Source: an uncultured Candidatus Saccharibacteria bacterium
GTDB lineage: Bacteria > Patescibacteriota > Saccharimonadia > CAILAD01 > GCA-016700035
NCBI GenBank assembly: GCA_964583675.1
Contig: CAZOVH010000002.1
Coordinates: 71,548 to 135,547, forward strand
Direction of reading: 5' to 3'
Length of the DNA: 64,000 nucleotides
Part shown: piece by piece, positions 6,127 to 30,849 of the stretch
Layout: each line of letters starts with the position of its first letter
Numbering within the stretch: the first letter of the stretch is position 1
Made by a program: the position numbers and the translations under genes
The notes under the pieces: generated by a model
What the model saw: only the letters and a program-made list of their open reading frames with translations
The model's database searches: none
What the model was told of the DNA's origin: nothing

Positions 6127-7332
6127 TTACTTAGTAATCTTCGTTACAACACCAGCGCCAACGGTACGCCCACCTTCGCGAATCGCAAAGCGGAGACCTT
6201 CATCCATGGCAATAGGAGCGAGGAGCTTAACCGAACAGTTGATGTTATCACCTGGCATTACCATCTTAGTACCTTCTGGAAGCTTCACTTCACCAGTAAC
6301 ATCGGTGGTACGGAAGTAGAACTGTGGCTTGTAGCCGTCTACGAAAGGAGTGTGGCGTCCGCCTTCATCCTTAGTAAGTACGTATACTTCAGCTTCAAAC
6401 TCAGTGTGAGGAGTGATTGAACCTGGCTTAGAGATAACCTGACCACGCTCAATCTGGGTGCGCTCAATACCACGAAGCAAGAGACCAACGTTATCACCAG
6501 CCTGACCTTCGTTCAGCATCTTGCGGAACATTTCTACACCGGTAACAACTGTCTTTTGATTGTCTTTAATACCAACAATCTCAACTTCTTCGTTAACGTT
6601 TACCTTACCTTGCTCAATACGACCGGTGGCAACAGTACCACGACCTTTAATGGAGAATACGTCTTCGATTGGCATAAGGAATGGCTTATCAAGTTCGCGC
6701 TCTGGCTGTGGAAGGTACTCATCCATAGCCTTAACGAGCTCCATGATTGAGTCTTCGGCAGCTGCATCACCTTCGAGAGCCTTAAGCGCCGAACCCTTAA
6801 CGATTGGGCAGTCAGCGTCGAATTCGTTCTTTTCGAGAAGTTCACGAATTTCAACTTCTACGAGCTCTGCAAGCTCTGGGTCGGCCTGATCCATTTTGTT
6901 CATGTATACGAGAATCTTTGGAACACCAACCTGACGAGCCAAGAGAACGTGCTCGCGGGTCTGAGGCATTGGACCGTCAGCAGCAGAAACCACCAAGATA
7001 GCGCCGTCAACCTGGGCAGCGCCGGTGATCATGTTTTTAACATAGTCAGCGTGACCTGGCATATCGACGTGTGCGTAGTGACGGTTCTCCGATTCATACT
7101 CCTGGTGGGAGGTAGCAATGGTAATACCACGCTCTCGCTCTTCTGGGGCCTTATCGATTTCGTCGTAAGCAACTGATTTGTTTACGTCTGATGGTAGTTT
7201 CTTTGCAAGTACAGCAGTAATTGCTGCTGTAAGAGTGGTCTTACCATGGTCAACGTGACCCATGGTACCAACGTTAATGTGCGGTTTGTCGCGCTTAAAT
7301 TCTGCAGCCACGAACTTCTCCTTTGTATACAA
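6127..7332 (-). CDS. tuf: elongation factor Tu
   Basis: 401 aa; [33 protein letters not shown] GTPase motifs. Confidence 0.97.
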
Positions 7333-8066: not shown

Positions 8067-10172
8067 TTACTCAGATTTTGCGGCGGCACTCTTGCCGATA
8101 AGCTCCTCCGCAATATTGTGTGGAACTTCGGCGTAGTGGTCAAATTCCATCGAGTAACTGGCTCGACCCTGAGTCATAGAACGAACAGTTGTGGCATAAC
8201 CAAACATTTCGGAAAGCGGAACAAAGCCGTCGATAATTTTTGCACCCAAACGATCTTCCATCTTTTCGATGCGACCGCGCTTAGAGTTCATATCACCCAC
8301 TACGTCACCCATGAATTCTTCAGGAGTCGTTACTTCAACTTTCATAACAGGCTCGAGAATGACTGGGTCGGCCTTCCGCACACCTTCTTGTAATGCCATC
8401 GATCCAGCGATCTTGAAAGCCATTTCTGACGAGTCAACTTCGTGGTATGAGCCGTCATACAACTTAGCTTTTACGTCAACTACCGGGTAACCAGCAAGCA
8501 CACCATTGCCCATGGCTTCTTTAATGCCTTCATCGACCGGCTTAATGTATTCACGAGGAACTACACCGCCAACAATGGCATTTTCAAACTCGTAGGTTGG
8601 CTTATCACCTTCAATGTCCTCAGCATGCACGAGCGGACTCACTTCAATCCAAACGTGTCCGTACTGACCGCGACCACCAGATTGGCGTACAAACTTTCCT
8701 TCTACCTGAACCGTCTTACGGATAGTCTCACGATATGCAACTTGCGGACGACCGACATTTGCCTCTACCTTAAATTCTCGCTTCATACGATCAACAAGCA
8801 CTTCGAGGTGAAGCTCACCCATTCCAGAGATGAGAGTCTGTCCAGCTTCGTTATCGGAGCTCACGCGGAAAGTCGGATCTTCTTCCGCCAGACGCGAGAG
8901 CGCCAATGACATCTTTTCTTGGTCGGCCTTAGTCTTTGGCTCTACAGCAATCTGAATAACTGGCTCAGGGAACGTAATTTGTTCGAGGATTACCGCATGT
9001 CCAACCTCACACAAGGTGTGACCAGTCATAGTGTTCTTAAGACCAACTGCTGCAGCAATTTCACCGGCATACACCTCCTGCACTTCTTCACGCTGATTAG
9101 CATGCATACGCAAGATACGACCGATACGCTCTTTTTCTCCCGTTGAGCTATTGAGAACATACGAACCACTCTTAAGAGTCCCAGCATAAATGCGGAAGAA
9201 GCAGAGCTTACCTACAAATGGGTCTGTCGCAATCTTGAAAGCCAAACCAACGAATGGTACATCATCGGCAACCTTGAGCACTTCCTGTTCGCCAGTCTTG
9301 ACGTTGTCAGCTAGTGGAGCGGCAATATCAAGTGGAGTTGGTAAGTAGTCTACAACAATATCCAAAAGCTTCTCGACGATTACGCCGCGGCCATCACCAC
9401 CGGATACGATGAAGAATTCACCCGAGAGTACGCTCTTACGAATGCAAGACTTAATCTCATCTTCGCTAAGCTCAGTACCTTCGAGGTATTTTTCCATAAT
9501 CGCGTCATCAGCTTCCACAGCAGCTTCAATGAGGTGTTGACGGTAGCGCTCGGCTTTTTCCTTCATATCTTCAGGAATTTCACCTTCAACCAGCTCTTTG
9601 TCCTTATATTCGGTATAGGTGTAAGCCTTCATGGCAATCAGGTCAACAATGCCATTGATAGACTGCTCTTCGCCAATTGGCAGGTGGATTGGATAGGCTC
9701 GCTTGGTTAGACGAGCATGAATTGACTCAAGGCTCTTATAAAAATCTCCACCAGTCTGATTGATCTTATTGATAAAACAAATGCGAGGCACGCCATACTT
9801 GTTAGCCTGGCGCCATACAGTTTCAGACTGTGGCTCTACACCCATTTTACCGTCAAAAACCGTTACCGCTCCGTCGAGTACACGTAAAGAACGCTCAACT
9901 TCTACAGTAAAGTCGATGTGGCCAGGTGTATCAATAATATTAATGCGCTTACCATTCCAGAAGCAGGTGGTCGCAGCCGAAGTAATAGTAATTCCACGCT
10001 CGCGTTCCTGCTCCATCCAGTCCATGGTGGCTTCACCTTCGTGCACTTCACCAATCTTGTGAGTCTTACCCGTACGGTAAAGCACACCTTCAGTAACGGT
10101 CGTTTTACCAGCATCGATGTGAGCAATAATACCAATGTTACGTGTGTTTTCGAGAGAATATTCGCGAGCCAT
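8067..10172 (-). CDS. fusA: elongation factor G
   Basis: 701 aa; [17 protein letters not shown] GTPase motifs and EF-G domain order. Confidence 0.97.
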
Positions 10173-10359: not shown

Positions 10360-11061
10360 ATGACCTCAGCAGTCCGCAAGTCGACACCAACCAAGCGAGT
10401 CAACCCCAAGATCCATTTCGAGACGAGCTCACGCCCCTCATCGGGCGCGATGAACCTCCTGGGCTGGGTCGCTGACAACCCACTGATTACCCACGTCTCT
10501 GTCGAAGCTGGGAAGCGTACCGCTCGGGCCGCTGGCCCAGTCAGGCTACGCATCATTGGCGGCACAGCGGATGCAGTGAAGATCACTATCTGCTGTGATG
10601 GCCTGCAGCATACTGCCAGGATGACGTATCAACGAGGAGAAACAAGATCAGTTCTCGAATATCTTCGCAAAACGTCAGCGCTAGAGTACGATCGGACTAC
10701 TCGACAGGATTTCTGCGCCTTCTGTGACAGCCTGCTGCCCGCTAACCACGGCGGAAACCGTAACCACCCCTGGCGTATCAGCAACTGCCATCGAATCTTC
10801 ATCAAGCCCGATGAACCGATGTGCGACAGCTGTCTTGATCGAGAACAAGAGTACGCCGCTGATGAGGATGGACCCACAGCTGAGGATAATGATTTCTCGC
10901 CTGAGGCAGCCTACCCGGGGCGAGCTCAATCAGCTGCTAATGCTCCGCGCATGACTTCCGAGGAATTCCAGGAGCAACTTCGTTCTGAAGTTGTGGCCGC
11001 TGCGGATCGCGAAGCCGCAAAGAAGCGCAAGCCCTGGTGGCGCCGACTTCGTAGCAAGTAA
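10360..11061 (+). CDS. hypothetical Cys/His-rich protein (high GC) with an HNH-like NCHR motif
   Basis: 233 aa; CAFCDSLL...NHGG...NCHRIF...CDSC; GGAG RBS; GC about 58-60%; strong terminator downstream. Confidence 0.5.
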   Translation: MTSAVRKSTPTKRVNPKIHFETSSRPSSGAMNLLGWVADNPLITHVSVEAGKRTARAAGPVRLRIIGGTADAVKITICCDGLQHTARMTYQRGETRSVLEYLRKTSALEYDRTTRQDFCAFCDSLLPANHGGNRNHPWRISNCHRIFIKPDEPMCDSCLDREQEYAADEDGPTAEDNDFSPEAAYPGRAQSAANAPRMTSEEFQEQLRSEVVAAADREAAKKRKPWWRRLRSK

Positions 11062-11066
11062 TCCCC

Positions 11067-11095
11067 GCCCCGACACATTGTCGGGGTTATTTTTT
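11067..11095. terminator. bidirectional terminator shared by convergent genes
   Basis: CCCCGACA-cat-TGTCGGGG then TTATTTTTT; preceded by AAAAAA on the opposite strand (ABC-F stop). Confidence 0.75.
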
Positions 11096-12745
11096 ACCAA
11101 CAAAACGCTCTTCGCCACCAATGTTCTTAGCAAAAAAGCTATCGTGCGAGATATAGAGAATTGCCCCTTCGTAGCGTTTTAAGGCATTTTCTAGCTCCTC
11201 AATAGAGGGCAAATCTAGATGGTTGGTTGGTTCATCGAGAATAAGCACGTTCGGACGCTGTGCAAACAGTGCAATTAGCTGAATTCTGGCTTTTTGACCA
11301 CCCGACAGCTGCTCAACTGGAATAGCACCATCGTGCCTTTCAAACAGATATTCTCGCAGAGTTTTTGCTATTGCCTCATCATTAACCGCCCTACCGGCTC
11401 GCGAATAAACATCGGCCACCGCTTCGGCGAGCGTCATGGTGAGATACCGAGCATCAATTTCTTGCTCATATCTACCCAACACCAAAGACGACGAACACTC
11501 AATGACACCAGCAAACACCGTACTCTCAAGAGCACCCCCTTTGGCAGTTGCCGTAATTGCATCCACAAGTGTTGTTTTTCCAGCACCATTACGACCCACA
11601 ATATGCACCCTCTCACCTGCGCGCAACTCAAAACCCATATCTGCAAACAATGGTTCGACGTAGCCCAAAGACAGCTCATCAATGCGAACAAGGCTCGCTG
11701 CGTTGCCAGCAACCGACTCGCGCGCACCACGTAAGTTAATTGATTTAGCCTTATATTTTTCGTATTGTTCACTTTGACCACGCTTCAAGCCCTGTACCGA
11801 CTCTTGATCAATCCAGATTGTTGGCTTAGAGATACGTTCTTCCAGCTCAGCAATTTCCCGTTGCAAACGGCGCACAAGTGGAATAAAGGGGTTGGGGCTT
11901 TGTTTTGTGCGAACTTTTTTTAGTTCAGCCTGCTTGAGGGCTTCCCGTCGATTTTCTAAGGTTTTTACATCAACCTCATACTGATGCATCGCGCTCGCTG
12001 AGCTGACAGTGTTCTGCTTGAGATAGGCTTCATAATTTCCTGGATAACTCTGCAATTTTTGATCTTTTAGCTCAAGTACCCTATCCGTACAGGCAAGCAC
12101 ATCTCGGTCGTGCGAGATAACCAATACAGCCGAGCGAACCTCTTTGAGCCAGGCCGTAAAACTAGCCTTCGCGACATAATCCATGTGGTTAGTTGGCTCA
12201 TCTAGAATTAACAGATCGGCGTTTGAATATTCAATTTGCACCAGTTGCGCAAAACGCTTTTGCCCACCGGAAAGATCACCAAACTTACCAGCGATCTGCC
12301 CTGTAGTAAGCTGATAGGCTTTGAGCGATTCAACCACCTGATCTTTCACATGATAATAGCCCAACTCATCATAGCGCTCGAGCGCATTAGTATATTCTTC
12401 GATGAGCTTCATATCATCACTCATCATATCCGGATAAGTGTCAATTATCTGGGTAAGACGAGTATAGTCGCGTAAGCCAGCCAAAACGTAATCCACAACC
12501 GATAGATCGGCATCTACCGAGTGCTGTTCCTGCTCGGTAGTAAGAATAACCACACCCTTGCGCAATCGAACCGAGCCGATATAATCAGCATCTTCTCCAG
12601 TAATAATTCGTGCAAGCGTAGACTTACCTACCCCATTGCGCCCGATAAATCCCACAACTTCACCAGCCTGGATTTGTAGCTCGGTATTTTTGAGAAGCAC
12701 GTTTGCGCCAGCTTGTTTCTCATCAATCTTGACTTCTAGTAACAT
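11087..12745 (-). CDS. ABC-F family ATPase (tandem ABC domains, no TM; ribosome-associated translation factor or ARE class)
   Basis: Two Walker A sites (GRNGVGKST, GRNGAGKTT), two LSGGQK signatures, two ILDEPTNHxD; ATG at 12745 preferred over the GTG-extended ORF; TTGCGC-17-TATACT promoter upstream. Confidence 0.85.
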   Translation of the reverse strand: MLLEVKIDEKQAGANVLLKNTELQIQAGEVVGFIGRNGVGKSTLARIITGEDADYIGSVRLRKGVVILTTEQEQHSVDADLSVVDYVLAGLRDYTRLTQIIDTYPDMMSDDMKLIEEYTNALERYDELGYYHVKDQVVESLKAYQLTTGQIAGKFGDLSGGQKRFAQLVQIEYSNADLLILDEPTNHMDYVAKASFTAWLKEVRSAVLVISHDRDVLACTDRVLELKDQKLQSYPGNYEAYLKQNTVSSASAMHQYEVDVKTLENRREALKQAELKKVRTKQSPNPFIPLVRRLQREIAELEERISKPTIWIDQESVQGLKRGQSEQYEKYKAKSINLRGARESVAGNAASLVRIDELSLGYVEPLFADMGFELRAGERVHIVGRNGAGKTTLVDAITATAKGGALESTVFAGVIECSSSLVLGRYEQEIDARYLTMTLAEAVADVYSRAGRAVNDEAIAKTLREYLFERHDGAIPVEQLSGGQKARIQLIALFAQRPNVLILDEPTNHLDLPSIEELENALKRYEGAILYISHDSFFAKNIGGEERFVGKK

Positions 12746-12822
12746 AGTTTTTCTAGTATATCTGTAAAGCATTATTTGCGCAAAAGAAATACGACCAGAA
12801 TATATCCTGGTCGTAAAATGCA

Positions 12823-13116
12823 CTACGGCTTATGAGCACCTCGCTGGCCAATCCTGGGAAGACTGGTGTCAACAACACCATGCGGTTGGCCGGCTGCGTC
12901 GTAGCACCTCTCGTGAAAGTGCTCAACTCGATTCCACTTGCCACGCTTGTAGACGTTGCAGATCACCTTCTTCAGCCGAACCCTTGCCTTAAAACGCAGT
13001 GGCTGATCGCAGTATTGGCACCTGGTGGTGTCACCAGGATCGATGTAGCGCAACACAGCCCGAGTACCAAGCTTTTTTGTCACCCGACTCGCGCCACCCC
13101 CATTCGCTCTTGCCAT
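12823..13116 (-). CDS. hypothetical small Zn-ribbon-like protein (elevated GC)
   Basis: 97 aa; CQYCDQPL...C...HFHERC; GGAGGG RBS; TTGACA-17-TAAAAT promoter; perfect 8-bp hairpin after its stop. Confidence 0.45.
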   Translation of the reverse strand: MARANGGGASRVTKKLGTRAVLRYIDPGDTTRCQYCDQPLRFKARVRLKKVICNVYKRGKWNRVEHFHERCYDAAGQPHGVVDTSLPRIGQRGAHKP

Positions 13117-13180: not shown

Positions 13181-13888
13181 CTAGCGATAGTAGAGTTCTG
13201 CAAAGAAGCGGCCATCTTCAGGGTCTTCAAGTAAGCGCATAAGATCCGGCATACTTCGCATGTAATTTGAGTCCGTCCAATCCGGCTGCAGGTCACTCCA
13301 AAAAACTTCACCAGCGGCATGCGCTTCATAAAACTGATCCGTTTGGGCTGTACCGCGGAACATATGGAAGAAAATTTCGCTCACAGGTGCCCCATTTTCT
13401 TCAATTGTGACGTAGCCATCACCTACATGCTTGAGTTCACTTTTTAAGCCGGTCTTCTCAAATAGCTCACGATGAGCTGCCTCGTGCACCGTTTCGCCGA
13501 GATGGAGTTTACCGTATGGTAAACCAACTTGCCCCAAGAGCGGCTGTACTTTCCGCTTCATAAGTAGCCAGCGACCAAGACGATCACGGATAGCCAGCAA
13601 AATAACGATCTTGGGCTGCAAGCGTGGTTTGAGCGATTCCAGAGAAAGCGTATCAACGTAACGCTTGCCGTCTGCCGTGAGCGTATAATGCTTATCCGCT
13701 GTCTGCTCAACATAGCCTTCTTGCATGAGTGATTTTAAGTGGTAGGCAAAAAGATTGCTCTCTACGCCAGCAGGTTTGATATCTCGATAACGTAGAGAGT
13801 CTCCACGCATTAAGTTGCGCAATATAGTTCGTTGAATGTGGTGCATCATACCTTCAAGTATACCATGCCTCAAATTGAGTTGAGTCAA
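13181..13888 (-). CDS. winged-helix DNA-binding domain fused to a NUDIX hydrolase domain
   Basis: N-terminal ArsR/MarR-like wHTH (IQRTILRNLMRGDSLRYRDI...); NUDIX box GKLHLGETVHEAAHRELFEKTGL (Gx5Ex7REUxExGU with one deviation); divergent from the 13967 operon. Confidence 0.6.
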   Translation of the reverse strand: MTQLNLRHGILEGMMHHIQRTILRNLMRGDSLRYRDIKPAGVESNLFAYHLKSLMQEGYVEQTADKHYTLTADGKRYVDTLSLESLKPRLQPKIVILLAIRDRLGRWLLMKRKVQPLLGQVGLPYGKLHLGETVHEAAHRELFEKTGLKSELKHVGDGYVTIEENGAPVSEIFFHMFRGTAQTDQFYEAHAAGEVFWSDLQPDWTDSNYMRSMPDLMRLLEDPEDGRFFAELYYR

Positions 13889-13966
13889 AAAGTCTGGCCT
13901 AGATTACACCTTCCAGCTGCGAGATAGTGAGGGTGTTCCCAGTACCTTGAGACTAAAGGAAAAACA

Positions 13967-14227
13967 ATGCCGGACGGGTACCACCTAGCTAGTTCAAAAA
14001 TCCGCAAAGGAGAGCTAGGAGAAATTTCAAAGATCCAGGAAGAACTCGATGAGCTCAGCGATGCTATGACTCAAGAATGTCGAATTATGGCACTCCTTGA
14101 GCTCTCGGACCTTGTCGGAACCATTGAGCTTTTTCTAGAGAAACATTTCTCTGATTTCACAATTGAAGATGTCCTCACAATGCAGCGCATTACCAAGCGA
14201 GCCTTTCAGAATGGAGCTAGAACATGA
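13967..14227 (+). CDS. small all-alpha protein, MazG/HisE-like NTP pyrophosphohydrolase fold (tentative)
   Basis: 86 aa with EELDELSDAM and ELSDLVGTIELFLEKH, which resemble MazG EExxE/ExxD metal-binding helices; AAAGGA RBS; ATGA overlap with the next gene. Confidence 0.35.
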   Translation: MPDGYHLASSKIRKGELGEISKIQEELDELSDAMTQECRIMALLELSDLVGTIELFLEKHFSDFTIEDVLTMQRITKRAFQNGART

Positions 14228-14847
14228 ACGAGTGGTACTTTGCACAGCCCGCAATTGACTATCGCCTACTGGCCGAAGCTATCGATTTCTACTCGCAACG
14301 TGGCTATACCTACATAGAAACGCCATGGGTTGTCGAACATCGGTACGCAAATGCCACCAAGCCGGCTGATCGGAGAGATTTCTTCTGTCTCGATGGCTAT
14401 CTCGTCGCCTCTGGCGAGCAAAGCTTTATGAGTGCTATGCATTCTGGCGAACTTCAGCCCGGAGGTAAATATCAAACCGTAACACCTTGCTTCCGCGATG
14501 AAGCTGTCGACAAGCTGCATCAAACGTGGTTCTTGAAACTCGAACTAATTTGGTACCGTCCGACTCTTCCTGTTCGTTACGGCACGGTATACGAAGTTAT
14601 GAACGACGCCAACACATTCATGAGTCGTTACATCAAGACGCAGCGCACGAGCCCGTGGGTTTTCGATGAAGACCCAACTTCCGAACATGGTGCCTACACC
14701 TATGATCTGGAATCAATTGACGGAATTGAGCTCGGTTCATATGGATATCGCCACCTGCTTAGCGAACACTGGATCTACGGGACTGGGCTAGCTCTACCTC
14801 GATTTACCATCGCGAAAAATACCCAACGCACAGGAGAAACAGCATGA
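14224..14847 (+). CDS. minimal class IIb aminoacyl-tRNA-synthetase catalytic-core paralog (EpmA/GenX/LysRS-like), 207 aa
   Basis: Motif 1 RGYTYIETPWV (compare EpmA RGVLEVETP); motif 2 TPCFRDEAVDKLHQTWFLKLELIWYRP (compare EpmA [23 protein letters not shown]); GIELGSYGY (compare GIELANGF); motif 3 GTGLALPRF; lacks the anticodon-binding domain and the about 100-aa insertion. Confidence 0.6.
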   Translation: MNEWYFAQPAIDYRLLAEAIDFYSQRGYTYIETPWVVEHRYANATKPADRRDFFCLDGYLVASGEQSFMSAMHSGELQPGGKYQTVTPCFRDEAVDKLHQTWFLKLELIWYRPTLPVRYGTVYEVMNDANTFMSRYIKTQRTSPWVFDEDPTSEHGAYTYDLESIDGIELGSYGYRHLLSEHWIYGTGLALPRFTIAKNTQRTGETA

Positions 14848-15068
14848 TGCACCACATTACCATTAAGGTTACGAGAGTCGATGGTGTTGGCTACGGTGGG
14901 TTTGGTACCCGTACCGACTACTATCTCACCTGCACGTGTGGCTTCTCGCGCTACGCAGACCCTATCGGTAAAAGAGACGCAACTGCACTCCATGCCACCC
15001 AACACCTCCTGGAGAGCATCATCGCTGAACTGGGTCTCGACTGCTCCATGAACCTCAGCTACCACTAA
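14844..15068 (+). CDS. hypothetical 74-aa Cys-containing protein, translationally coupled to the aaRS-like gene
   Basis: ATGATG overlapping the upstream stop; contains LTCTCGF and an ELGLDCS motif (ACP-like DSL with Cys); terminator follows. Confidence 0.4.
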   Translation: MMHHITIKVTRVDGVGYGGFGTRTDYYLTCTCGFSRYADPIGKRDATALHATQHLLESIIAELGLDCSMNLSYH

Positions 15069-15085
15069 CCCCTTAAACGAGTAAG

Positions 15086-15110
15086 CCCCTCGCTTGAGGG
15101 GTTTACTTTT
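15086..15110 (+). terminator. rho-independent terminator
   Basis: CCCCTC-gctt-GAGGGG then TTTACTTTT. Confidence 0.7.
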
Positions 15111-15255: not shown

Positions 15256-15732
15256 CTAGTACCGGGCAAAGTGCGCAAACGCCTTGTTAGCCTCAGCCAT
15301 CTGATGAGTATCAGCCTTCTTCTTGATGGCATCACCCTGGTTGTTGTAGGCATCCAAGAGTTCGTTTGCGAGACGCTTATCGAAGCTCTTACCTTCTTTG
15401 GCGCGAGCAGCATCCAAGATCCAAACCATTGCGTAATGAATGCGTCGATCTGGCTTCACTTCCATCGGCACCTGATAGTTTGCACCACCAACACGACGGG
15501 AACGAACCTGTACGTGTGGGCTGGCATTTTTAATAGCGCCTTCGAAGATTTCCATCGCGTCAGCTTTACCTTTTGTAGAAGCTTCTGTGAGAGCATCATA
15601 CACGAGGTTTTCGGCAAGACGCTTTTTACCGCTCTTCATCACCTTGTTAATCATGCGTGTTACAAGCACAGAGTTGTACTGCATGTCTGGAGCGAGTTCG
15701 CGCTTGAGGGATTTAGTCTTTTTTCGTGGCAT
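15256..15732 (-). CDS. rpsG: 30S ribosomal protein S7
   Basis: MPRKKTKSLKRELAPD... S7; start taken at the internal ATG next to the rpsL stop. Confidence 0.93.
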   Translation of the reverse strand: MPRKKTKSLKRELAPDMQYNSVLVTRMINKVMKSGKKRLAENLVYDALTEASTKGKADAMEIFEGAIKNASPHVQVRSRRVGGANYQVPMEVKPDRRIHYAMVWILDAARAKEGKSFDKRLANELLDAYNNQGDAIKKKADTHQMAEANKAFAHFARY

Positions 15733-15733
15733 A

Positions 15734-16156
15734 CTATTCTCCCTTCGCCTTCTCGAGCTTAGCGCCATACTTAGATCGGCCCTGCTTACGGTTGGCGACA
15801 CCGGCTGTGTCGAACGAACCACGCACTACGTGATAACGAACACCTGGAAGGTCTTTTACTCGACCACCGCGCACGAGCACTACTGAGTGCTCCTGCAGGT
15901 TGTGGCCAATTCCACCAATGTAGGCAGTTACTTCCATGCCGTTAGTGAGGCGCACACGGGCAACCTTACGGAGCGCTGAGTTTGGTTTCTTTGGAGTTTG
16001 GGTGAATACCTTGGTACACACACCGCGCTTCAAAGGTGCGTCCAATGGACGAACGCGACCTTTGAGAGCGTTGAGACTACGGCTCAAGGCTGGCGACTTA
16101 CTTTTGCGTCGAGCCTTGGCGCGTGGTTTGCGAATGAGTTGGTTAATCGTTGGCAT
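15734..16156 (-). CDS. rpsL: 30S ribosomal protein S12
   Basis: 140 aa; [10 protein letters not shown]...[11 protein letters not shown]12 signature. Confidence 0.95.
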
Positions 16157-29187: not shown

Positions 29188-30849
29188 ATGCAAAACAATA
29201 AATATTATCTGTACGCCAGAAAGTCTACTGACGTAGAGGACAAACAGGTTTTGTCCATTGAGGCGCAACTGGTAGAGTTGCGAGAGTATGCCAAAAGAGA
29301 AAACTTATATATTGCAGCCGAGTTCATAGAGAAAAAGTCAGCCAAAACGACAGGCAGACCAGTATTTGGCAAACTGTTGGCTGAAATCGAAAAAGATGGC
29401 GGCAATATTTTGGCGTGGCACCCTGACAGACTTGCTAGAAATAGCGTAGACGGTGGGCAGATTGTCTATTTGCTAGACAGCGGACAACTCGGCACGCTCA
29501 AGTTTCCCTCTTTTTGGTTTGAGAACACGTCACAGGGCAAGTTTATGCTCTCAATAGCTTTTGGACAGTCCAAATATTATGTAGACAATCTGTCCGAGAA
29601 CACTAAAAGAGGTTTGCGCCAAAAAGTGCGGCGGGGCGAACGTCCTGGGCTTGCGCCTGTGGGCTACATAAATGATGTTAGGACAAAAACGGTTGTCGTA
29701 GACAAACGGCGTTCGCCGATTGTCATTGAGGCTTTTTCGTTGTACGTCAAAGGCGATCAACGGCTTGAGGATATCGCCACTTTTCTAGCAAGTAAAGGAA
29801 TACTAACGAAGTCTGGCAAACAGTTTCCGAAAGATAAAATTAAGCGCATACTCACCAATCCGTTTTACTATGGGCATTTCCGTTATTTTGGCGAGATACA
29901 CGAGGGCAAACATACAGCCATAATTTCCAAGAAACTTTTTGACGAGGTGCAAGCTACGCTTGCAAAGCGTGGGCGACCGCAAAAAGGCGCAACTGCGCCG
30001 CAAATATTTTGCGGTTTGCTCAAATGTGCAACGTGTAAACTGTCCGTTACTGCCGAGAAAAAGATAAAGCACCAAAAGAACGGCAATATTCACGAGTATG
30101 TGTATTATCGTTGCACAAGAAAGCACAAAACAATCCGTTGCACCGAGCCAGCCGTAACTGAGCATGATTTAGTAGCGCAGTTGGCGGACATTTTGTATAG
30201 CTACGCTATGCCACAAGCGTGGGCGATTACGCTGGGCAAAATGCTGGACGAGGACGAAAAGAAAACCAACCAAACATCTGGCTTGTTTGTGGCGGGCGCA
30301 CAAACACGACTTGCGAGCTTGCAGGGCAAGCTCCAGCGACTTTTAGACAGTTATTTAGACCAAGATATCGACCAGAACTCTTATCGCAGTAAACAGGGCG
30401 AGCTAATGTCCGAGAAAAAGTCGCTGGAGGAGCAAGTCAGCAAGCTAACGCTTGCCGCCGGAAGTTGGGTTGAACCTATGCACCAGTGGCTCAAACAATC
30501 CGTTTCTCTCTGTGAAGTTGCTAAAAATGGAAGTTATGCAGACATTAAGCAGGCATTTCTTGAAATGGACGGATTGAACCTGTTTCTAAAATCCAAAAAA
30601 GCGCAGCCAACGGCTGCCCCAAACGCAGCTCTCCCCCCTGAAAACATTTGGTCTGCGCTCCGCGCAGCCAAAGAAAAAACGGCGCAACGCGCCGCTAATT
30701 CTGACTTTAGTCCATTTCTGGTGCGGATGAAAGGACTCGAACCTTCACGTCTTGCGACACTAGCTCCTAAGGCTAGCGTGTCTACCAGTTCCACCACATC
30801 CGCTCGTCGCAAGCGAATTCACTTTGTCTTGCTCAGTGGCGATAATTAA
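29188..30849 (+). CDS. large serine recombinase/integrase
   Basis: N-terminal resolvase catalytic domain YARKSTDVEDKQVLSIEAQ; recombinase domain; Zn-ribbon CGLLKCATCK...YYRCT; coiled-coil; ORF reads through the repeat and tRNA-Leu with no stop until 30849, so the C-terminus is uncertain. Confidence 0.85.
   Translation: MQNNKYYLYARKSTDVEDKQVLSIEAQLVELREYAKRENLYIAAEFIEKKSAKTTGRPVFGKLLAEIEKDGGNILAWHPDRLARNSVDGGQIVYLLDSGQLGTLKFPSFWFENTSQGKFMLSIAFGQSKYYVDNLSENTKRGLRQKVRRGERPGLAPVGYINDVRTKTVVVDKRRSPIVIEAFSLYVKGDQRLEDIATFLASKGILTKSGKQFPKDKIKRILTNPFYYGHFRYFGEIHEGKHTAIISKKLFDEVQATLAKRGRPQKGATAPQIFCGLLKCATCKLSVTAEKKIKHQKNGNIHEYVYYRCTRKHKTIRCTEPAVTEHDLVAQLADILYSYAMPQAWAITLGKMLDEDEKKTNQTSGLFVAGAQTRLASLQGKLQRLLDSYLDQDIDQNSYRSKQGELMSEKKSLEEQVSKLTLAAGSWVEPMHQWLKQSVSLCEVAKNGSYADIKQAFLEMDGLNLFLKSKKAQPTAAPNAALPPENIWSALRAAKEKTAQRAANSDFSPFLVRMKGLEPSRLATLAPKASVSTSSTTSARRKRIHFVLLSGDN
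30590..30720. repeat. inverted-repeat copy B' (right end of putative element, inside the recombinase 3' coding region)
   Basis: Reverse complement of 28907-29040; ends exactly at the tRNA-Leu CCA. Confidence 0.85.
30719..30803 (-). tRNA. tRNA-Leu (anticodon UAG), type II with a long variable arm
   Basis: Minus-strand sequence GCGGATGTGGTGGAACTGGTAGACACGCTAGCCTTAGGAGCTAGTGTCGCAAGACGTGAAGGTTCGAGTCCTTTCATCCGCACCA; 7-bp acceptor stem, anticodon loop CTTAGGA, T-loop GGTTCGAGTCC, encoded CCA; close to E. coli tRNA-Leu. Confidence 0.8.

Follow-up and report, generated by a model that had tools for sequence, protein, structure and literature searches.

A minimal class II synthetase-like core and a HisE/MazG-type pyrophosphohydrolase linked in large phages and Saccharibacteria

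Which acceptor would a class II aminoacyl-tRNA-synthetase-like enzyme serve if it consisted of a catalytic core alone and its one constant companion were a nucleoside triphosphate (NTP) pyrophosphohydrolase? The question is raised by a locus in a 64-kb stretch of DNA (64,000 nucleotides, the whole of which is called the window below) from an uncultured Candidatus Saccharibacteria bacterium. Here, a gene for a HisE/MazG-like all-alpha NTP pyrophosphohydrolase of 86 amino acids (aa; 13967-14227, + strand) is followed by one for a minimal class II core of 207 aa, with motifs 1, 2 and 3 only and without a tRNA-binding domain (14224-14847, +), and by a gene for a 74-aa protein (14844-15068, +). ATGA stop/start overlaps at 14224-14227 and 14844-14847 join these three open reading frames (ORFs), and a divergent 235-aa ORF (13181-13888, - strand) encodes a fusion of a winged helix-turn-helix (wHTH) and a NUDIX domain. 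An earlier reading, made from the sequence alone, had listed these ORFs and overlaps, all of which are present in the sequence, and had treated the three + strand genes as a functional unit built on an EpmA-like synthetase. Comparison across phage and cellular genomes shows that the conserved unit consists of two genes, not three or four, and that the two-gene module is predominantly one of large phages. Judged by the catalytic residues that both proteins retain, an adenylate-forming-type and an NTP-pyrophosphatase-type active site have been held together, or fused, by evolution. L- and P-numbers in the following text label individual loci and proteins of the comparison set.

A two-gene module predominantly of large phages

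Both proteins belong to phage protein families. The 207-aa protein matches PHROG 4806 at 8.9e-40 over residues 10-199 of 207, and the 86-aa protein matches PHROG 6408 at 4.3e-33 over residues 3-85 of 86; the PHROG label 'histidyl tRNA synthetase' on the core is an annotation only. A tblastn search matches 276 phage records with the core and 264 with the small protein, in a nearly equal spread of host genera (core/small records) that include Escherichia (112/113), Acinetobacter (61/54), Caulobacter (13/13), Pectobacterium (10/10), Cronobacter (8/8) and Brevundimonas (7/7). In IMG/VR, the pair is carried by more than 150 contigs, and its phage homologues are listed as uncharacterised in BFVD. 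Identity to the proteins of Escherichia coli phage VEcB is 59% for the small protein (gp162) and 35% for the core. Among about 185,000 species representatives, the core family occurs in 26, mostly on contigs of metagenome-assembled genomes (MAGs) from the Candidate Phyla Radiation (CPR), DPANN or predatory bacteria, and a plasmid collection holds no copy of the pair's family. PADLOC defence models return nothing for the 207-aa or the 74-aa protein and only weak matches for the NUDIX protein (PDC-S07, 1.5e-4) and the small protein (0.043). Across the family, the core measures ~180-207 aa and the pyrophosphohydrolase ~85 aa, and some members carry Zn-ribbon extensions. The two proteins are acidic.

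The two genes travel together. The small gene is present in 86 of 89 loci, always on the strand of the core, and is adjacent upstream in 31, adjacent downstream in 33 and fused in 3. With the addition of 26 loci from species-representative genomes, which brings the set to 115, the partner is present in 108 loci and forms a single polypeptide with the core in 12 (about 10%); protein P0046 is a natural fusion in which the core precedes the pyrophosphatase. Apart from this partner, no recurrent neighbour is universal. Because the linkage is conserved, survives reversal of gene order and is accompanied by natural fusions, the members of the pair are functional partners, and linkage and fusions together are much stronger evidence of partnership than the ATGA overlap. 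The proposed three-gene unit therefore stands for the 86-aa and 207-aa proteins and falls for the 74-aa protein.

The 74-aa ORF has the substitution pattern of a real gene of this lineage. Compared with locus L089, which belongs to the genome closest to the window (a Candidatus Saccharibacteria MAG, 82% identity), its differences at codon positions number 3/7/24, with 20 synonymous and 9 non-synonymous codons. It is a lineage-specific orphan, translationally coupled to the pair and outside the conserved module: it occurs only in the window, L005, L006 and L089 (82% identity or more). A survey of related genomes shows that it is absent from L007 and L008, which have the same locus at 60% identity and keep the pair. 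Among 1.84 billion (1.84e9) cluster representatives it finds its own cluster and no relative, and it has no match in Pfam, NCBIfam, PHROGs or PADLOC and no acyl carrier protein (ACP) or PP-binding match. The sequence-only reading had seen an acceptor or carrier in this protein on the strength of the Cys in 'ELGLDCS'. That Cys is Phe in L089 and L005, so the protein is not a conserved acceptor, and an ACP-like carrier role is rejected for an orphan in which the Cys is not conserved and the motif lies at the extreme C-terminus.

The GC content of the pair equals that of its flanks, which indicates that its acquisition is old. Recent horizontal transfer was considered and rejected on this ground and because the locus is common to relatives at 60% identity. 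The module was acquired long ago by an ancestor of this Saccharibacteria lineage and now lies between rpsG and a resident string of genes for the wHTH-NUDIX protein, a 97-aa protein (p97) and an ABC-F protein. Its position between rpsG and fusA had been taken to suggest a translation-factor function. This suggestion fails, because most carriers of the pair are phages and the locus lacks it in sister Saccharibacteria; the rpsG-fusA placement is lineage-specific.

The core and its pyrophosphohydrolase partner

The 207-aa protein is a genuine minimal class II core of ambiguous subclass and is not specifically EpmA-like. It contains the strings RGYTYIETP, CFRDE...H..WF..LELIWYRP, GIELGSYGY and GTGLALPRF, in which all class II motifs had been recognised, and an alignment of 70 homologous sequences with 23 invariant columns confirms this recognition. 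Invariant in 70/70 are P34 in motif 1, R91 and F103 in motif 2, K105, E107, E169, G171 and S172, and T187, G188, A190, P192 and R193 of motif 3 (Thr187-Gly-x-Ala-x-Pro-Arg193); S63-x-E65 is invariant as well. Motifs 1, 2 and 3 are thus present with their catalytic Arg residues, and the core is probably catalytically active. In a single-sequence search, the window protein scores 24.7 bits with Pfam tRNA-synt_2 (PF00152) against a gathering threshold of 25; 60 of the 70 family members match this model (E of 0.1 or below, best 9.5e-9) and 9 match the G/H/P/S/T model. Scores fall below the cut-offs for NCBIfam SerRS (TIGR00414; 18.1 bits, cut-off 301.65) and EpmA/GenX (TIGR00462; 16 bits, cut-off 287). 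A direct search of PDB sequences with the 207-aa protein gives no match, and a search with the family profile finds SerRS first (E 4e-6) and then PylRS, AspRS and PheRS; hhalign pairs the core with E. coli SerRS at a probability of 81%. The AlphaFold model is confident (pLDDT 90.9, pTM 0.89) and has the antiparallel beta-sheet core fold of class II. Among the known folds listed against it, scores are 18.6-17.6 for SerRS cores, 17.4-16 for HisRS/HisZ, 16.6 for PylRS, 15.5 for the amino acid:[carrier protein] ligase Bll0957, 14.1 for LysRS, 13.8 for EpmA/GenX (rank 38) and 13.7 for AsnA. Profile and structure searches therefore place the protein inside the class II synthetase fold with its catalytic motifs retained.

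Resemblance to particular synthetases is divided. The core shares TPCFRxEA, F-x-K-x-E, E-x-x-S and a motif 3 of the form G-(S/T)-G-L-A-x-x-R with the class IIa catalytic domain of SerRS, and a local alignment with the E. coli enzyme pairs TPCFRDEA with TPCFRSEA, F-x-K-x-E with F-x-K-x-E and, in motif 3, H..YGTGLALPR with HTLNGSGLAVGR. It differs from SerRS in having no N-terminal coiled-coil tRNA-binding arm, in being about 120 residues shorter than the SerRS core, in a motif 2 loop that is 9 residues shorter and in its constant NTP pyrophosphatase partner. The spacing of motif 2, FR[DN]E-x5-H-x3-F-x3-E-L, is that of LysRS/AspRS, and together with the tRNA-synt_2 matches it recalls LysRS, AspRS and EpmA (GenX/PoxA), whereas motif 3 is not the GxGxGxDR of class IIb. 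Like EpmA, the core stands alone without an anticodon-binding domain, but it is about 120 aa shorter and has no association with elongation factor P (EF-P) or EpmB. The class IIb, EpmA/LysRS-like assignment of the sequence-only reading thus survives in motif 2 and in the tRNA-synt_2 matches, while structure and motif 3 favour SerRS. With motif 3 and fold SerRS-like and motif 2 spacing LysRS/AspRS-like, we do not think that the amino-acid substrate can be named from sequence. The predicted absence of an anticodon-binding domain is borne out and extends further: the catalytic core occupies all 207 aa, with no added Pfam domain or other appendage, and the protein has no tRNA-binding element of a bona fide aminoacyl-tRNA synthetase. 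Databases label the core 'histidyl' or 'seryl tRNA synthetase', or hypothetical; the first two labels are mislabelling.

By its conserved residues, the 86-aa protein is a HisE/MazG-type all-alpha NTP pyrophosphohydrolase with an intact metal site. Its EExxE helices had been described as MazG/HisE-like, and an alignment of 65 homologues supports that description: K22, E25, E26, E29, D32, E45 and D48 are invariant (KxxEExxE...ExxD), as in the superfamily of MazG, HisE and dimeric dUTPase (EExxE...ExxD). The window protein alone gives marginal matches (MazG, E 0.12; hisI domain, E 0.096); within the family, 52 of 65 members match Pfam PRA-PH (HisE), at best 1.6e-5. Its predicted model is confident (pLDDT 91.6) and finds MazG and HisE as structural matches at 20-27% identity, and a PDB sequence search with the family profile gives no match. 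The protein is not HisE proper (TIGR03188; 12.9 bits, cut-off 42.7), and no his genes occur in any context examined around the pair. Two other candidate features were rejected. An ACP-like string, 'LGEISKIQEEL', consists of the same residues as the KxxEExxE motif of HisE/MazG. An RF-1/peptidyl-tRNA-hydrolase match in L041, an extended variant of the small protein, is spurious, without a GGQ, and the extensions of different variants are unrelated.

Candidate acceptors and rival explanations

The explanation that we consider best, tentatively and with less than even confidence, is that an adenylate-forming enzyme works with an NTP pyrophosphatase on a nucleotide-type acceptor. The core would bind ATP and an alpha-amino acid and form an acyl-adenylate, as any class II enzyme does, and the adenylate would then react with a nucleotide-type acceptor, most likely not with a protein or carrier. 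A nucleotide is favoured because the core has no tRNA-binding domain and its sole universal partner grips a nucleotide triphosphate; the absence of any extra domain, the shortened motif 2 loop and the acidity of both proteins are further points for a nucleotide over a tRNA. Two routes can be envisaged. The phosphate of an NTP may attack the adenylate to give a dinucleoside polyphosphate (Ap4N-type), or a ribose hydroxyl or an amine may be aminoacylated on a nucleotide that the pyrophosphatase partner has made or holds. The partner would supply a nucleoside monophosphate acceptor or turn over the product, and, in the window, the Nudix-fold sensor may respond to a nucleotide ligand and govern the intergenic region that the divergent genes share. 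Class II synthetases, SerRS and LysRS among them, are known to form Ap4N-type compounds as a side reaction. A more specific form of this proposal, which we regard as doubtful, sees in the pair a hitherto unrecognised enzyme system, present in large phages by the hundred and in some organisms of the CPR and DPANN, whose product would be an aminoacyl-nucleotide or an Ap4N-type compound; the HisE-like partner would supply this compound or break it down. A parallel exists in MazZ-PurZ of phage Z-genomes, in which the nucleoside monophosphate released by a MazG-type (d)NTP pyrophosphohydrolase serves an enzyme that ligates an amino acid at the expense of ATP, and the genes lie near genes of DNA or nucleotide metabolism. 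PurZ is a PurA homologue and is not synthetase-like, no sequence relationship to the pair was found, and phages with the pair are not known to have a modified base; the analogy is one of logic only.

Gene contexts were counted after viral loci had been de-replicated into 56 lineages, and genes of deoxynucleoside triphosphate (dNTP) metabolism lie near the pair in 12 of them, a setting that speaks for a nucleotide-type acceptor. In phAPEC8 the order is helicase, pair, ribonucleotide reductase (RNR) and NrdD, with the stop of the pair overlapping the RNR start; in VEcB it is pair, YqeY, RNR and NrdD. Morganella phage MP1 has dihydrofolate reductase, two hypothetical genes, the pair and thymidylate synthase, Erythrobacter phage XM05 has dNMP kinase, MazG, the pair and RNR, and an Acinetobacter phage has thioredoxin, NrdC and NrdH near the pair. 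NadM-Nudix (a nicotinamide mononucleotide adenylyltransferase plus NUDIX) and NAMPT each occur near the pair in 11 loci, and NADAR is found nearby too; genes of this nicotinamide adenine dinucleotide (NAD)-salvage and ADP-ribose-reversal group recur a few kb from the pair in several lineages of phages, for example at L082 10807-11853, L076 13274-14662 and L031 5415-5849.

Several observations weigh against a nucleotide acceptor. Among stand-alone class II cores, none is known whose physiological acceptor is a nucleotide; Ap4A arises from full synthetases as a side reaction, and a short motif 2 loop is normal in tRNA-binding class IIb enzymes. In 16 of the 56 lineages the pair has tRNA genes at a distance of up to 8 kb, and in 5 at up to 1.5 kb; by locus, the count for 8 kb is 31 of 80 viral loci, with the tRNAs on the strand of the pair in 234 cases vs 9. 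In L017, L018 and L020 the pair lies inside arrays of 19-21 tRNAs (16 kb). A gene for YqeY, a GatB-like tRNA-binding protein, directly follows the pair in VEcB, a helix-hairpin-helix (HhH) of the RNA-polymerase alpha C-terminal domain (alpha-CTD) type is fused to the core in CcrColossus gp133 (L002 3761-4615), and genes for tRNA nucleotidyltransferase and RNA ligase are among the neighbours of the pair in some phages. All of this context evidence is partial. Alpha-CTD-like HhH modules (PF03118, 3e-6) are found in Caulobacter and Erythrobacter phages, either fused to the core or just upstream of it (L124 3290-3511).

These observations bear on the main rival, a minimalist synthetase directed at tRNA, which we think rather unlikely. 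The core would charge the 3' end of a tRNA, or a modified nucleoside as GluQRS does, by recognising the acceptor end only, with any extra RNA binding provided in trans or by add-ons such as YqeY, the HhH domain or Zn ribbons; the pyrophosphatase would be an accessory, for example for clearance of a nucleotide or by-product. In its favour are the same-strand tRNA arrays that enclose or abut the pair, YqeY and the HhH fusion, the Zn-ribbon extensions and the neighbouring tRNA nucleotidyltransferase and RNA ligase genes. The core retains every residue by which a working synthetase performs catalysis and binds an alpha-amino acid, and tRNA is the default acceptor of the class II fold. However, most members have no tRNA-binding domain of any kind, and the universal partner is an acidic NTP pyrophosphatase rather than an RNA-binding protein. 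To our knowledge, there is no natural synthetase as small as this core. tRNAs abut the pair directly in L057, L065 and L071 (that of L057 starts 37 nt after the core), but no isotype is consistently adjacent, and the Saccharibacteria loci have no nearby tRNA: the sole RNA gene detected in the window by ARAGORN and Rfam is tRNA-Leu at 30719-30803 (-), 16 kb from the pair. Proximity may also be indirect, with tRNA arrays and nucleotide genes sharing early or auxiliary regions of large phages. The associations of the pair with tRNA and with dNTP genes are real but partial, and neither decides function, because both gene classes populate the same auxiliary regions. Some viral contigs that carry the pair also encode tRNAs with a CUA anticodon (called tRNA-Pyl by ARAGORN; L023 13010-13084, L030 2211-2286, L066 882-952), which are likely amber suppressors and hint at stop-codon recoding in those phages.

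A regulatory subunit in the manner of HisZ, in which the core takes an amino acid and/or ATP as a metabolic signal and adjusts, by allostery, the activity of the true enzyme, the pyrophosphatase (for example a dUTP, dCTP or NTP pyrophosphatase that feeds phage dNTP synthesis), is improbable. Such a role would fit the resemblance of the small protein to HisE, its closest relative among Pfam models, the dNTP-metabolism contexts and the better conservation of the small protein than of the core in the comparison with VEcB, and HisZ itself is a precedent for a class II core as a regulator (PMC9437257). HisZ is without adenylation activity (PMC9437257), whereas the window core has every catalytic residue: none of 70 sequences varies at the Arg residues of motifs 2 and 3, at the Phe that stacks on adenine or at the Glu-x-x-Ser for Mg/ribose, which is the pattern of a catalyst and not of a sensor and disfavours a HisZ-like role. 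There is also no HisG-like partner of the kind with which HisZ works, and the likeness to two components of the histidine pathway may be coincidental.

Still less probable is a selfish or conflict module, such as a toxin with its antitoxin or a pair for defence or counter-defence, with one protein keeping the nucleotide- or tRNA-directed toxicity of the other in check. A small protein and an enzyme with overlapping genes in variable order, spread patchily over phages, CPR and DPANN and within hyperplastic phage regions, would suit such a system, as would the counter-defence genes for NAD salvage near the pair in some phages. Yet PADLOC gives no meaningful match, the plasmid collection has no copies, frequent fusion into one polypeptide is atypical of toxin-antitoxin pairs and both proteins keep enzyme active sites, while the Saccharibacteria copies are vertically retained, stable and ameliorated in composition.

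The EpmA-like model, in which an adenylated amino acid is passed to the 74-aa Cys protein or to a translation factor under wHTH-NUDIX control and in connection with rpsG-fusA and ABC-F, can draw on the ATGA coupling of three window genes, the reality of the 74-aa gene, the IIb-like motif 2 spacing, the prevalence of tRNA-synt_2 among Pfam matches and a divergently adjacent NUDIX gene in 9 loci, but it is scarcely credible and largely refuted by distribution, as the 74-aa gene is an orphan that is missing at 60% identity and in all other loci, the mainly phage-borne pair is found without ribosomal genes, and sister genomes have rpsG-NUDIX-ABC-F without the pair. A comparison with the amino acid:[carrier protein] ligases (Bll0957, PDB 3mey) leads away from a carrier as well: their partner is a phosphopantetheinylated carrier, whereas here it is a HisE/MazG-type enzyme with an invariant metal-binding motif, and no conserved carrier protein is found among the recurrent neighbour families of the pair.

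The Saccharibacteria locus and its place in class II diversity

The block is flanked on one side by rpsG (about 15256-15732, -) and on the other by genes for p97, ABC-F (11087-12823, -), a 233-aa protein and, beyond these, fusA (8067-10172, -). The mechanical rpsG ORF (15256-15822, -) encodes 188 aa from a GTG; homologues in L007 and L008 have 158 aa, so the true start is probably an internal ATG near 15732, a few bases from rpsL. p97 is Cys/His-rich and Zn-ribbon-like (12823-13116, -), lies between the NUDIX and ABC-F genes with its stop overlapping the ABC-F start, and has a homologue at the same position in L118 (E 4.6e-16). NUDIX-p97-ABC-F looks like a conserved Saccharibacteria gene string within the str operon region. 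The 233-aa ORF (10360-11061, +), between fusA and ABC-F, has a locally raised GC content (0.56 vs about 0.48) and several CxxC motifs; it has no match in Pfam, NCBIfam, PHROGs or PADLOC and is kept in the closest relatives only (L005, L089). Between the convergent 74-aa gene and rpsG lies a 13-bp hairpin (15079-15108, +; -21.3 kcal/mol, z -3.9), which is terminator-like with a short U-tract of about 4 U after it. The stem is kept in L089 and L005, where one C has become T (G-U). The 'clean terminator' previously placed here is thus a strong hairpin, but with a short U-tract and not called by a consensus terminator scan.

The divergent wHTH-NUDIX gene heads the NUDIX-p97-ABC-F string. Pfam places the winged helix at residues 18-81 and the NUDIX domain at 95-186 (4.8e-10), in agreement with the proposed fusion with an N-terminal HTH, the reverse of the order in NrtR. 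Most homologues begin MHHIQR, for which reason the true start is probably an internal ATG at 13849 or 13846. The Nudix box reads G-K-L-H-L-G-E-x7-R-E-L-F-E-K-T-G-L and departs from the intact form GX5EX7REUXEEXGU: in 19 homologues the position of the second Glu of REx2EE is always taken by another residue, and four of them lose further catalytic residues. The protein resembles NrtR in joining a degenerate Nudix domain to a winged helix and in having a conserved palindrome upstream of its own gene; it differs in domain order and, at 13.8 bits against a cut-off of 400, does not belong to NF050029 (NtrR). It is probably a sensor-type regulator with a non-catalytic Nudix domain, to judge from these residues. 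With 33 clusters the family is small, and it seems to be confined to Saccharibacteria.

The palindrome, TTGAGTCAA (TTGASTCAA; 9 bp at 13880-13888), is a candidate operator or -35 element of the wHTH-NUDIX gene. It lies within the shared divergent intergenic region, proximal to the NUDIX protein's own start. A generic repeat finder detected no inverted repeats in the intergenic region, and the palindrome was found by comparison across loci: TTGA(C/G)TCAA directly precedes the NUDIX gene in each of the 11 aligned loci and in L119 and L120, with or without the pair. Positions are 4973-4981 in L116, 4941-4994 in L117 (3 copies), 4952-4960 in L118 and 4911-4919 in L119/L120, and the element is often present in 2-3 copies (L116, L117). 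At a distance of 12-13 nt from it there is another conserved element, ATCTAG(A/G)C. The window has 4 copies of the palindrome vs 0.68 expected, the other exact ones being at 9722 (in fusA), 22715 (in rpoB) and 47937. TTGACT-N17-TATACT in the window can also be read as a sigma-70-like promoter for the NUDIX gene.

In 9 loci the gene is the divergent neighbour of the pair; four of these are distant (L098, L103, L108, L112) and without rpsG and fusA. L116-L118 have the NUDIX gene with p97 and ABC-F and without the pair, and in L118 rpsG is followed directly by NUDIX. Its casting as the local regulator of the pair is therefore uncertain: adjacency recurs, but the gene occurs without the pair, heads its own string and has the palindrome near its own start. 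The protein is resident and probably autoregulated, and control of the pair is plausible. In L112, a distant Saccharibacteria chromosome, a gene for a 392-aa protein (8552-9730, +) overlaps the stop of the core by 4 bp; an N-terminal stretch of 210 aa is followed in this protein by a uridine-cytidine kinase domain, which makes up its C-terminal half and matches UCK2 at E 3e-9. A canonical 125-aa MazG (6577-6954, -) lies directly downstream of the NUDIX gene in the same locus, and both genes count among the nucleotide-related surroundings of the pair.

Stand-alone class II cores have repeatedly turned out to perform new chemistry, as in AsnA, HisZ, EpmA, the amino-acid:carrier-protein ligases and the BirA/LplA relatives. 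We know of no described system that combines a core smaller than these, a complete active site and a lock to an NTP pyrophosphatase. No study of the synthetase-like core and pyrophosphatase pair was found in the literature, nor is it treated in a review of synthetase paralogs (PMC9437257). Transposon-essentiality data for phage Bas54 (bioRxiv 10.1101/2025.11.20.689424) could not be mapped to the pair, which is not annotated there and whose carriage by Bas54 is unconfirmed.

The pair is common, with about 270 sequenced phages that include well-studied phages of E. coli, Acinetobacter and Caulobacter, and its product, once known, would show how large phages remodel nucleotide or tRNA pools. The pair would also define a minimal functional class II core, which bears on models of synthetase origin. 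If the pair does make an aminoacyl-nucleotide or an Ap4N-type compound, the module would constitute a dedicated pathway of nucleotide signalling or nucleotide-pool remodelling, no smaller class II synthetase-like enzyme with catalytic competence would be known in nature, and the Nudix-fold regulator of Saccharibacteria may sense what the pair makes. For Saccharibacteria, the locus represents stable domestication of a phage module beside the str operon and brings to light a new regulator of the Nudix type with its candidate operator.

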